DNA of 46,686 nucleotides from a virus (lineage: Duplodnaviria > Heunggongvirae > Uroviricota > Caudoviricetes). The notes under the pieces were generated by a model. The model was not told where the DNA came from. It saw nothing but the letters and a program-made list of their open reading frames with translations, and made no database searches. This document shows positions 4,847-8,372 of the stretch, one piece after another. Made by a program: the position numbers and the translations under genes. The stretch is from the IMG/VR virus record IMGVR_UViG_2778261229_000001, positions 1 through 46,686 of that record, one strand, 5' to 3'. The first letter of the stretch is position 1; each line of letters begins with the position of its first letter.

Positions 4847-5143
4847 TTATACCTCTGAATCAATATCAACCTGATGGTGAGCAATGGTTTCAACCATGTA
4901 CCGGATGTGTTCTGCCATGCGCTCCTGAAACTCAACATCGTCATCAAACGCACGGGTAATGGCTTTTTTGCTGGCCCCGTGGCGTTGCAAATGATCGATG
5001 CATAGCGATTCAAACAGGTGCTGGGGCAGGCCTTTTTCCATGTCGTCTGCCAGTTCTGCCTCTTTCTCTTCACGGGCGATCTGCTGGTAGTGACGCGCCC
5101 AGCTTTGAGCCTCAAGACGATCCTGAATGTAATAAGCGTTCAT
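4847..5143 (-). CDS. gam: Gam, RecBCD inhibitor (short form)
   Basis: 98-aa protein matching the lambda GamS sequence ([21 protein letters not shown]...VDIDSEV). Confidence 0.92.
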
Positions 5144-5218
5144 GGCTGAACTCCTGAAAATGGCTGTGAAAATATCGCCCGCTAAATGCCAGGCTGATTA
5201 GGAAAACAGGAAAGGGGA

Positions 5219-5629
5219 TTAGTGATTCAGGCCGTTACCGCGTCCGTCGAGAAAAACTTCCACGAGCAAATCACGGGTATAAGTGCGCTCGATGCCGCGA
5301 TGCAGATAAAGCCGTCCGCGTAAATTAGCTGATGCAGTCCAGGTACCATCTTTGTGTTTGACCAGCATTCCTGGCATGACCGCACCTCGATTAACGGTCT
5401 GCGTTCCGTAATGTTGATGAACCATAAAAACTCCTGCCCGTAAGCTGGGCTGCTGAACATATAGAGACTTCTGCGCGTATTCAGGCGGTGGATGGCCGCC
5501 GGTTGTCATAACTAAGCCGCCTCGTTGAAGCGACTGAGGTATGAGGTGTTGAGTTGATTTCAGCTGGTCACACCGACGTTCACACGTCCGTTTCACCCCT
5601 CGCACTCCCCGGAGCCTGCTGAAATTCAA
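5219..5629 (-). CDS. Hypothetical protein, first gene downstream of the putative pL (N position); Arg-rich N-terminus
   Basis: 136-aa ORF directly downstream of the predicted leftward promoter/operators; no confident similarity to lambda N; an alternative-frame ORF (5227-5460) also exists. Confidence 0.3.
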   Translation of the reverse strand: MNFSRLRGVRGVKRTCERRCDQLKSTQHLIPQSLQRGGLVMTTGGHPPPEYAQKSLYVQQPSLRAGVFMVHQHYGTQTVNRGAVMPGMLVKHKDGTWTASANLRGRLYLHRGIERTYTRDLLVEVFLDGRGNGLNH

Positions 5630-5702
5630 GCTGCGGATCTAAGCGGTCATCGCAACGGTGAATCAGGTGGTTGCCGTATCGTTGTGTTGTTGCGATGAAC
5701 TC

Positions 5703-5731
5703 ATTTAAAACTATAGTTGTTTTACCGTCAA
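5703..5731 (-). promoter_or_regulatory. Putative pL promoter with overlapping operator OL1
   Basis: Minus-strand TTGACG-17 nt-TTAAAT; spacer carries AAAACTATAGTTGTTTT, near-identical to the operator in the pR spacer; further GTTGTTT half-sites to 5781. Confidence 0.5.
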
Positions 5732-5788
5732 CAACAAAAGTTGTTTCATTGGTTGTTTTAGATATAACTGGTTGTATTTAGGATGGAT

Positions 5789-6412
5789 TTATTTTGTGAC
5801 TTGCATCGCATAGCGATAACTGAAGCGGGGGGTATGGTGGTTTTTTGAACGGTGTGTGATGAGGGGAGGCAAAAGAAAACCCGGCACGACGGCCGGGGAG
5901 GGGGGGCATTTTAATCTATCAAGGAGTGACTCTCTTTCCTTCTTCTCTGATTCTCTTCGGTTTAATAACGCTTTAAACTCTTGAAGCTCAACCATTATTT
6001 TATGAACGAATACACTGGTATAGAGAGAAATAAAGAGTAATCCACCTGAAATTTTTAAGACCCTGAAGAGTAGGGCTTGATCATTTGTGCTTGCTATTAA
6101 CCCCAAGATTACAAACAAAGTTGAAAATACATAGAAAGCTAATAATAAAACCAATTTCAGTCTCTTGGATTTGACTATTGGCACTAATCGCCTAACCTCA
6201 CTAGGGGTTAAAGACGAGTGGTCATTGGCCTCATTTGCCTTAAAAATGGCTTGTATACAATATGATAATGGCAATTGCATGAGTCCAACCACAGCCCACG
6301 GAGCAGTTAGGACAACACCCGGTGTAATATAGCCCAATGCTGACTTGAACAAAAAGTAACCAGCAAAATAGAAGACCAACATACCAATAAGGTGGATGAT
6401 GTTCGATTTCAT
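5789..6412 (-). CDS. Four-TM membrane protein of the rex-position cassette (RexB-position analogue)
   Basis: 207-aa ORF; four hydrophobic segments then a charged coiled-coil-like stretch; RBS AGGAGGG upstream; 21 nt after the upstream gene; AT-rich; last ~40 codons run into GC-rich backbone. Confidence 0.6.
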   Translation of the reverse strand: MKSNIIHLIGMLVFYFAGYFLFKSALGYITPGVVLTAPWAVVGLMQLPLSYCIQAIFKANEANDHSSLTPSEVRRLVPIVKSKRLKLVLLLAFYVFSTLFVILGLIASTNDQALLFRVLKISGGLLFISLYTSVFVHKIMVELQEFKALLNRRESEKKERESLLDRLKCPPSPAVVPGFLLPPLITHRSKNHHTPRFSYRYAMQVTK

Positions 6413-6433
6413 TATCGCCCTCCTTTTGGTAGG

Positions 6434-7456
6434 TTATTTTGCAACCAATTCTCCGGCATCAAGTTTTGAGAACAGCCACTTATGCATTTTTAAGAATAAA
6501 TCATTTTCATCAATAATGCCATTGTTATATTCAACGCTAATTTTTCCGGATAATTTTATCTCTTTTCCCGTTATTTCCCCACCGCCTTGAAGTTTGATGC
6601 TAATATCATCCTCATCTAGATGTCGTAGTGAGGTAGCAATACTGTCTATAACAGCTTGACCGCTATCATTTGTTTTTCTGAAGTATGTAATCTCGAGGCT
6701 TACTTGTAAATTGGCCTCATCTAATGAATCTTTAATGTTTATATCATTTGCCCAGTTATCGCCAAAAAATGCTTTTAGTAGCGCACCTCCTTTCCCTATT
6801 GGGCGGTATTTTATTGTCTTCACCGAACCATTTGAAAAGGAGGGTGTTTGGTTCTCTGAATTTTTAACTTCTGAAGTAATGGGTAATCCACCAATTTTTA
6901 TGCTCTTGGCTGGTGCTTTCTCCATTTTTTTCATCGTTTCTTCGGATGGCTTATCTTGAAGCATTAACACAGATTCTTTTTCATCTGTGAATGTATTAAT
7001 TAGCCAATTCAAATGCGCCTCAAGCTCCCTTGCTCGAAGCGATGTGGATTGAACGATCATGACATGGTTGTTTAGTACACCAAAATATAAAATTGAATCT
7101 ACAAACTCTCTTTTTTTGTCACTACGTTTATCTCCATCAATAATTATATCATTAGACGTGATGGAGTTAATGTCATAAAATTTAACATTATCACTAAGCT
7201 CTAATAGAGACTGGCTTTTGTCTTTTTCAAATAAAACCAGTTGCCCAAAAAGTATAGTTTTGTATGTGTCGCTTTTATTTAAGAAACGATACCCCGAATT
7301 TTCATCTGAAGGTGTTATTTTTTCTTGTCTACTAAGTACTTTTTCTGCAACGCCGCCCTCACCTATAATACTAAGTAGTATGTTTTGTAATGATGATTTG
7401 CTGTGTGGGATTACTGCTTTTTTATAATGAACGACTTTTTGTCTGTTATCTTTCAT
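6434..7456 (-). CDS. 340-aa soluble protein of the rex-position cassette (RexA-position analogue), function unknown
   Basis: Long AT-rich ORF downstream of and co-oriented with cI; no TM segments; no motif I recognise. Confidence 0.6.
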   Translation of the reverse strand: MKDNRQKVVHYKKAVIPHSKSSLQNILLSIIGEGGVAEKVLSRQEKITPSDENSGYRFLNKSDTYKTILFGQLVLFEKDKSQSLLELSDNVKFYDINSITSNDIIIDGDKRSDKKREFVDSILYFGVLNNHVMIVQSTSLRARELEAHLNWLINTFTDEKESVLMLQDKPSEETMKKMEKAPAKSIKIGGLPITSEVKNSENQTPSFSNGSVKTIKYRPIGKGGALLKAFFGDNWANDINIKDSLDEANLQVSLEITYFRKTNDSGQAVIDSIATSLRHLDEDDISIKLQGGGEITGKEIKLSGKISVEYNNGIIDENDLFLKMHKWLFSKLDAGELVAK

Positions 7457-7513
7457 TGCTATAGTCCAACTAGTATTGAATAAATAAACACAGTAAAGAC
7501 ATAAAAATTTCTT

Positions 7514-7543
7514 ATAGCTACCGATAACGTAATCGGTAGCTAT
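7514..7543. promoter_or_regulatory. Perfect 12-bp inverted repeat (ATAGCTACCGAT-aacgta-ATCGGTAGCTAT) between cI and the cassette
   Basis: Read directly from sequence; lies in the 120-bp gap between cI stop and the cassette start. Confidence 0.5.
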
Positions 7544-7578
7544 TACAAATCAACCAAAGGTAATTCTTTACATACTAC

Positions 7579-8268
7579 CTACCCATGCTTCCTGTAGGTC
7601 TGCGGCATGCTCCCAATAACTTTCCCGAAGATAAACACCCGGTTCATCTCGTCTTTCTCAATTGGGTCCCACGGCGAGTAGCTCTTGTTATCAGAGATAA
7701 CCAGTAGCTTATCCTTCATCATTTGCAGGCGCTTTACATGGGCTGTGTCGTCGTACAGAAACGCATAGATACCATCACCGTCGAAAGATTTAACTGTGAT
7801 ATCAACGAACAGCAGATCACCTGGTTCGATCGTTCCTGACATGCTGTCACCACGCACGTTAATGATGCGGATATTTTCCGCCTTCCTACCATCGAACATG
7901 TGACGAGCATCGTCAAACGAGTACTCAACCGAGCGTAGAACTTCTACAAACTCACGGTTGATGACTCCCGGCCCAGCACTGACTTCTATATCAAGAACGT
8001 CAATCTTAAAGTATTTGGAATGGCTGACAGTTGATAGTATTGGTTGCACTGTACTGTCTGACATATTTCCAACGCCAGAAGATAACCATTCTGCGCGCAC
8101 ACCCAAAGCGTTCGCGATCTCCACGATTTTAGTTGTTTGGTTAGCTTTCCCTGTTTCGATTTTCTGAATAGCAGCTTGGCTAACCCCGACCAAATCCCCA
8201 AGCGCCTTTTGTGTAAGGCCTCGCGCTAATCTGGCTTCTTTAAGTCTTTCTGAGAGTGTTGTTTTCAT
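7579..8268 (-). CDS. cI: CI-like prophage repressor (XRE HTH plus S24 LexA-like peptidase domain)
   Basis: N-terminal HTH (LTQKALGDLVGVSQAAIQKIETGK), Ala-Gly cleavage site, Ser (GDSM) and Lys (HVKRL) dyad; start trimmed to ATG at 8268; divergent from cro. Confidence 0.85.
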   Translation of the reverse strand: MKTTLSERLKEARLARGLTQKALGDLVGVSQAAIQKIETGKANQTTKIVEIANALGVRAEWLSSGVGNMSDSTVQPILSTVSHSKYFKIDVLDIEVSAGPGVINREFVEVLRSVEYSFDDARHMFDGRKAENIRIINVRGDSMSGTIEPGDLLFVDITVKSFDGDGIYAFLYDDTAHVKRLQMMKDKLLVISDNKSYSPWDPIEKDEMNRVFIFGKVIGSMPQTYRKHG

Positions 8269-8278
8269 AGTCCAAATG

Positions 8279-8347
8279 TACAACCAAGGTTTTATTCCAT
8301 CAAACGAAAATGGTTGTTGACTAAAAACAACCATAGTTTTAATCTTG
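8279..8347. promoter_or_regulatory. OR operator region with putative pR (TTGACT-17-TAATCT) and three operator-like repeats
   Basis: Repeats of ACAACCA(A/T)(A/G)GTTTT motif at about 8282-8297, 8300-8319, 8324-8340; 25-bp palindrome ATGGTTGTT-N7-AACAACCAT at 8310-8334. Confidence 0.55.
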
Positions 8348-8372
8348 ATTCAAATTAACCACGGAGGTTGTT

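Follow-up and report, generated by a model that had tools for sequence, protein, structure and literature searches.

In bacteriophage lambda, T_IMM is an intrinsic terminator immediately downstream of rexB, at which the pRM and pLIT transcripts end (bioRxiv 10.1101/2021.04.19.439022). In constructs, Li et al. (2016, NAR 44:2554; PMC4824070) found that extending an open reading frame (ORF) past the terminator tR2 lowered termination efficiency to ~40% of control, and that termination inside an ORF gave non-stop mRNAs and lower expression. Here we describe the corresponding region of a Caudoviricetes virus, IMG/VR record IMGVR_UViG_2778261229_000001, whose whole stretch of 46,686 nucleotides (nt) is called the window below. 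In this region, the stop codon of a RexB-like membrane gene has very probably been destroyed by one base change, and the ORF runs through the immunity terminator. The long ORF is an ordinary low-frequency mutant allele and not a remodelled insertion junction.

The substituted stop codon and the terminator behind it

The native coding sequence of the membrane protein (5909..6412, minus strand) has 168 codons, and in relatives it is closed by a TGA at 5908-5906, 8 nt before a hairpin. In the window, this codon 169 (5906..5908) reads TGC. On the plus strand, T has been replaced by G at 5906 (C on the minus strand); this turns stop into Cys, and TGA followed by C6 becomes a C7 run (5900..5906; G7 on the plus strand) that comprises the C6 tract of the 3′ untranslated region (3′UTR) and the substituted base of the stop codon. 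The ORF then continues for 38 non-native codons to a TAA at 5791-5789 (extension 5789..5905), which gives 207 codons in total (5789..6412), and the minus strand reads ATG-CCCCCCC-T-CCCGGC-CGTCGT-GCCGGG-TTTTCTTTT-GCC across the site. The C7 run, the CCCGGC-N6-GCCGGG hairpin, the ORF that crosses both and its Pro-rich tail had been reported in a first-pass annotation of this DNA, and all of them are present at the positions given there. Runs of seven or more G are not statistically improbable in this sequence (2 observed vs 3.6 expected).

Comparison with relatives identifies the change as a substitution. Phage Perceval (OV696612) has the same cassette with an annotated 168-amino-acid (aa) transmembrane protein, and in the alignment it reads GAT AGA TTA AAA TGA CCCCCC T CCCCGGCC where the window reads AAA TGC CCCCCC T. 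Alignment and string extraction recovered AAAATGA, followed by six or seven C and TCCCCGGCC, from Perceval and seven E. coli chromosomal or plasmid loci, and AAAATGC-C6-T from the window and six independent loci; loci L009 and L010 carry C7. A 76-nt probe across the site matched 43 of 5426 complete E. coli genomes, all cassette-bearing, and each of the 43 shows a single difference from the window, in 38 the substitution (TGA+C6) and in five a span that is one base longer (TGA+C7). The closest TGA locus, AR_0077, has no indel at the site, and its two other differences from the window are private to it. Because this TGA+C6 locus is 99.92% identical to the window over 3.6 kb and the C7 loci only ~95.7%, the event is a substitution. 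That the window's sequence arose when a TGA-C7 allele lost its A was considered and rejected on the same grounds (~95.7% identity for C7 loci vs 99.9% for C6 loci). Hence slippage, which the first-pass annotation had offered as a source of the long ORF, does not apply, since the extension comes from TGA->TGC and not from an indel.

A native membrane protein of 168 codons ending in TGA is well supported by sequence comparison. The alignment to PHROG 16807 is limited to residues 1-168, and 15 homologues at 66-72% identity, named Enterobacter and Klebsiella proteins among them, are all 168 aa long. In elements of Serratia, Pseudomonas and Aeromonas, where identity drops to 22-34%, the partner proteins stop 2-4 residues past the aligned K168. 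The extended ORF ends ...DRLK-CPPSPAVVPGFLLPPLITHRSKNHHTPRFSYRYAMQVTK, and this Pro-rich tail is non-native, being translated 3′UTR (5905-5898), terminator (5897-5870) and backbone spacer (5869-5792). Codons 169-171 (C-P-P) are the mutated stop codon and the C tract of the cassette 3′UTR, codon 172 (S) spans the junction of cassette and backbone, codons 173-178 (PAVVPG) correspond to the hairpin, 179-181 (FLL) to the U-tract and 182-207 to the spacer. The tail is absent from every homologue examined outside the stop-loss allele, in agreement with the earlier suspicion that it is not a native feature; the first-pass annotation had named a tail shared by homologues in unrelated contexts as evidence against its reading, and no such tail was found. 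In a model of the 207-aa form, long helices cover residues 2-28, 31-62, 70-107 and 112-168, and the tail is predicted to be disordered, with a predicted local distance difference test score (pLDDT) below 50 (~31-41).

The backbone spacer holds a second C6 tract at 5825-5830 (minus strand; 'ATACCCCCCGC'). Related phages have A-ACCTCGC or A-TCCTCCC at this place, and in one 207-aa variant (P0031) the tail differs from the second C tract onward.

The terminator itself occupies 5870..5897 on the minus strand and consists of the hairpin CCCGGC CGTCGT GCCGGG at 5897-5880 and the U-tract TTTTCTTTT at 5879-5871. A terminator scan detects it with six G-C pairs, a 6-nt loop and then UUUUCUUUU, which qualifies as a U-tract, and the minimum free energy of the hairpin RNA is -12.1 kcal/mol. 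Terminator-like sites are seen 7 times in 4 kb, with 3.4 +/- 1.8 expected; what singles this hairpin out is that it is conserved and homologous to lambda T_IMM, and not the statistics. Lambda has rexB-TAA-CCCGGCCTCAGCGCCGGGTTTTCTTTGCC, and CCCGGCCTCAGCGCCGGGTTTTCTTTGCCTC directly after the rexB TAA corresponds to CCCGGCCGTCGTGCCGGGTTTTCTTTTGCCTC in the window. Because stem and tail are the same as in lambda, the hairpin is, on sequence grounds, a T_IMM homologue and the terminator of the cI-cassette operon, as the first-pass annotation had proposed for this transcript. It stands between the last gene of the cI (pRM) operon and oL/pL, where a terminator of the T_IMM type is expected. Across related phages the stem is kept while the loop varies, and in one phage a C->U change preserves a G-U pair. 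Moreover, in an Enterobacter prophage with a 70%-identical cassette, TGA directly abuts CCGGCCACCGAGCCGGTTTTTT, a CCGGC-N6-GCCGG-T6 hairpin.

Distribution of the stop-loss allele and competing explanations

The exact 207-aa protein (P0019) occurs on 47 contigs (74 index blocks) from NCBI, JGI, ENA and Logan, and three further 207-aa variants exist; 168-aa forms are found on well over 2000 contigs. All six P0019 loci that were fetched have TGC+C6, and two of them are 100% identical to the window over 5100-8700. One TGC-bearing contig of 12.6 kb was present in at least 20 samples, and another in 7. On these sequence data, the stop-loss allele is very probably real and not a one-off sequencing error, because a context-driven miscall would not be lineage-consistent while thousands of contigs read TGA.

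Several points weigh against our reading of the locus. TGC is found in 0 of the 43 cassette-bearing complete RefSeq genomes, and SNPs (single-nucleotide polymorphisms) linked to TGC were sought within 5100-8700 (3.6 kb) and none was found. The base at 5906 in the window is as called in the assembly. The hairpin folds with an unremarkable z-score (-1.27 in a 64-nt context). Finally, the non-stop mRNA, reduced termination and hypomorphy suggested below are inferred from the literature and not from the locus.

The first two of these points, together with the occurrence of the allele on several prophage backgrounds, would also fit a sequencing or assembly artefact, in which the T after the G6 run was read as G in error and TGA is the true sequence. 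Sequence-specific Illumina errors are prone to occur where a base is preceded by GGC motifs, by an inverted repeat and by a run such as G6, and a GC-rich inverted repeat and the G6 run do precede the changed base on the plus strand. However, the identical product comes from four independent data sources, the two recurrent contigs were assembled from many samples, and more than 2000 contigs with the same local context read TGA; a context error would not follow lineages. We regard the artefact as quite unlikely, and the same holds for the earlier warning that the homopolymer could be a sequencing-error site. Since the allele lacks linked SNPs and occurs on several mosaic prophage backgrounds, the data are compatible both with a single origin followed by recombination and with recurrent origin.

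One TGC locus, L014 (GCA_034322145.1), has its 340-aa gene split into 103 + 208 aa by single-base deletions. These are equivalent to window positions 7111 and 7181 and lie in T runs, one of them in the T7 run 7111-7117; they may reflect pseudogenisation and decay, or long-read homopolymer error.

A second explanation takes the locus as a functional contingency or recoding device, in which changes of tract length, leaky read-through of UGA-C, or translation across T_IMM would tune the dosage of the RexB-like protein or read-through into the pL operon. In E. coli, a C after UGA makes for a weak stop signal. Lambda, Enterobacter and the window all have the stop codon abutting the terminator, and translation over a terminator lowers termination efficiency (PMC4824070). 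Tract length also varies across strains, a comparison that the first-pass annotation had called for, with C6 in 38/43 and C7 in 5/43 genomes; yet the tract of all TGA alleles lies after the stop codon, in the 3′UTR, where a change of length leaves the protein unaltered, and two lengths only occur, both short. The tail is neither conserved nor predicted to be ordered, and 38 stop-free codons are expected by chance with a probability of ~0.16, (61/64)^38. In addition, the TGC allele is rare (~50 contigs vs more than 2000), and at one TGC locus the RexA-like gene is disrupted as well, which fits decay and not function. A dedicated device is therefore very improbable.

Barely credible, and refuted by the sequence comparisons, is the model of the first-pass annotation, in which the native 3′ end was cut short or rebuilt when an AT-rich cassette inserted, leaving the tail as a by-product. 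Backbone DNA to the left of the cassette junction does encode the tail, but Perceval and the 43 genomes share the exact cassette and junction with a complete 168-codon gene and an intact TGA, homologues in other genera and in other types of element stop at this residue too, and the junction lies downstream of the native stop codon.

The exchangeable cassette and its surroundings

Comparative alignment places the junction at 5897/5898. The compositional shift noted by the first-pass annotation is real, with a GC content of 0.358 in 5898-7578 and of 0.49 (5100-5897) and 0.446 in the flanks; its proposed position of ~5940 was ~40 nt off, and the part of the ORF that lies in backbone DNA is ~109 nt and not ~150. 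Phages with other cassettes show homology over 5100-5897 and 7579-8700 and none between. Because three related phages align only outside that interval, we take 5898..7578, bounded by the cI stop codon and the first base of the hairpin, as an exchangeable low-GC cassette (minus strand). The hairpin, by these alignments, belongs to the conserved backbone as its first element and marks the left boundary of the cassette. Between cI and the hairpin, PhiR5_1 carries HipA/HipD, PhiR47_2 carries GevT/GevA, and PhiR34_1 has a short stretch with no annotated gene; lambda holds rexA-rexB in this position. The comparison, of 5898-7578 of the window with loci L002, L003, L004 and L018, shows a sharply bounded swap site in otherwise near-identical phages. 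Our literature search on PhiR phages or a cI-adjacent hot spot found incidental mention only. The interval from cI to T_IMM is thus a cleanly bounded swap site that can hold RexAB, a divergent RexAB-type pair, HipA/HipD or GevT/GevA.

The pair of genes in the window's cassette is provisionally read as a divergent RexAB-type pair, with a function predicted from models and gene order. The first gene (6434..7456, minus strand) encodes a 340-aa cytoplasmic protein with a predicted RexA/RdgC fold. Its family is widespread in Gammaproteobacteria, and a membrane gene of 168-176 aa invariably comes next, in prophages and other mobile-element contexts, and this pairing is kept in elements of Serratia, Pseudomonas, Aeromonas and Enterobacter. 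An AlphaFold model built from 51 sequences (pLDDT 70; predicted template modelling score, pTM, 0.68) gave lambda RexA (8TWQ) as the sole Foldseek match in the PDB at E <= 0.001, so that the protein would supply the RexA-fold cytoplasmic component of such an exclusion system. Immediately downstream, the smaller protein has four long helices in the model and shows Kyte-Doolittle hydropathy peaks, as a small four-transmembrane partner should. The link of the 340-aa protein to RexA is drawn from the fold comparison. Neither cassette protein matches Pfam RexA (PF15969) or RexB (PF15968) even at E <= 10, while lambda RexA and RexB, used as controls, match at 1e-97 and 8.5e-92, and the pair is therefore not placed in these families by sequence. 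Searches of Pfam, PADLOC and NCBIfam returned nothing meaningful for either protein, neither BLASTP nor HHalign gave a match to lambda RexA or RexB, and a PDB sequence search with the 340-aa protein gave no match. For a pair that is found across Gammaproteobacteria and labelled 'unknown function', the RexAB-type reading, albeit provisional, offers a first assignment.

As a whole, the window represents a complete lambdoid prophage: an integrase-sized ORF lies at 1-1143, and genes for the tail are found toward the right end. On the minus strand the order is cI, the 340-aa ORF, the membrane ORF, the hairpin, operator-like palindromes with a putative pL, kil, gam, bet and exo. The cI-type repressor (7579..8334, minus strand; helix-turn-helix and S24 peptidase domains) is the first gene of the operon that the hairpin closes. 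By-eye alignment to lambda pL suggests a putative pL at 5703..5731 on the minus strand (TTGACG, 17-nt spacer, TTAAAT), which sits inside AACAAC/GTTGTT operator-like palindromes; the TAA of the extended ORF is 58 nt upstream of it. We are confident that the region forms a leftward immunity operon, cI -> RexA-like -> RexB-like membrane gene -> T_IMM-type terminator -> oL/pL. In one stop-loss copy (L017, an SRR6362348 contig), gam is directly followed by an integrase gene and host icd, without bet or exo between.

Between the cI stop and the start of the 340-aa gene (7507-7550) lies a perfect palindrome with a 12-bp stem, ATAGCTACCGAT-TACGTT-ATCGGTAGCTAT, followed by AAGAAATTTTTAT on the minus strand. 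The 122-nt intergenic RNA of this region has a folding z of -3.04. The palindrome belongs to the E. coli form of the cassette, and the Enterobacter form lacks it; judged from its sequence, it could serve as an internal attenuator, in RNA processing or in protein binding. In the stretch from the putative pL to kil (5510-5700, minus strand), an N-like antiterminator gene is absent, and the leader contains long complementary stretches, ATCGCAAC...GTTGCGAT and GCAGCTTGAATTTCAGC.... It is conceivable that this leader is a put-like cis-acting antitermination RNA, as in HK022. Its folding z is only -0.61, and an Rfam scan of 5000-9500 at E <= 1 found nothing.

Just after the replication genes O and P, the plus strand encodes a 1302-aa inverse autotransporter (11176-15084), an intimin/invasin-type adhesin with IAT_beta and Big_1/Invasin_D3 repeat domains. 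An alpha/beta-hydrolase gene (BD-FAE esterase; 15121-16164, minus strand) adjoins it on the opposite strand. The two genes look like prophage cargo (morons).

Predicted consequences and comparison with described systems

According to our reading of the stop-loss allele, transcripts of the TGC allele that end at T_IMM would lack a stop codon, and their products would be tagged by transfer-messenger RNA (tmRNA) and degraded, leaving less RexB-like protein. Ribosomes crossing the hairpin would be expected to lower termination efficiency, and some cI-operon transcription would then enter the pL operon. The 207-aa form would be made from read-through transcripts only, which continue across oL/pL. 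On balance, the allele is most likely hypomorphic or neutral with respect to the RexB-like gene.

That the stop-loss allele serves as a natural tuning device, rather than reflecting simple decay, appears improbable. If it did, T_IMM would lie within a translated ORF and the output of RexB-like protein would depend on terminator read-through and tmRNA rescue. In addition, cI-operon transcription would leak into the pL (kil-gam-bet-exo) operon, RexA:RexB stoichiometry would be shifted, and lysogen stability or inducibility would be altered. By extension of this improbable reading, the abutment of stop codon and T_IMM in lambda, Enterobacter and the window could be a conserved design of a translation-sensitive terminator. 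The stop-loss and TGA alleles offer a natural, isogenic-like pair for testing the effect of translation on intrinsic termination.

For annotation, the 207-aa ORF should be recorded as a stop-loss variant of the 168-aa gene, the hairpin as a T_IMM homologue, and the cassette boundary at the hairpin. The stop-loss variant is an ordinary allele in a known architecture, with nothing in it to surprise a specialist, and its features can be placed by comparison with four kinds of described systems.

Phase-variable homopolymeric loci share with this locus a poly-C tract with C6/C7 polymorphism, next to or within an ORF. In contrast to such loci, the tract here is short and lies in the 3′UTR of the common alleles, so that its length does not switch the native protein. 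In the stop-loss allele it affects the non-native tail only, and the long ORF itself arose by substitution and not by slippage.

The constructs of Li et al. (2016) form a second case. In W38p, as in the stop-loss allele, the ORF was extended past an intrinsic terminator, and termination efficiency was reduced; in W48, termination inside the ORF gave non-stop mRNA, which parallels the predicted fate of the TGC transcript. The difference is that the window holds a natural allele, known from sequence alone.

RexAB-type systems are represented by lambda RexA/RexB, PP_5643/PP_5644 of P. putida and those of the actinobacteriophages Sbash, CarolAnn and Toast. Like RexAB, the cassette is a two-gene module downstream of cI, in one operon and with the same terminator, and like RexB its smaller product is a four-helix membrane protein. 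Unlike RexA and RexB, both proteins are larger (340 vs 279 aa and 168 vs 144 aa), and neither has detectable sequence similarity to them.

The fourth is the lambda immunity region, whose layout the window reproduces with the two cassette ORFs in the places of rexA and rexB. The terminator agrees with lambda T_IMM in the identical stem CCCGGC/GCCGGG, in the 6-nt loop, in the tail TTTTCTTT(T)GCCTC and in its place directly after the last cI-operon gene and upstream of oL/pL. It differs in the loop sequence (CGTCGT against CTCAGC) and in the spacing of the stop codon: the rexB TAA abuts the hairpin, whereas the native TGA of the window's membrane gene lies 8 nt upstream and is lost in the stop-loss allele.
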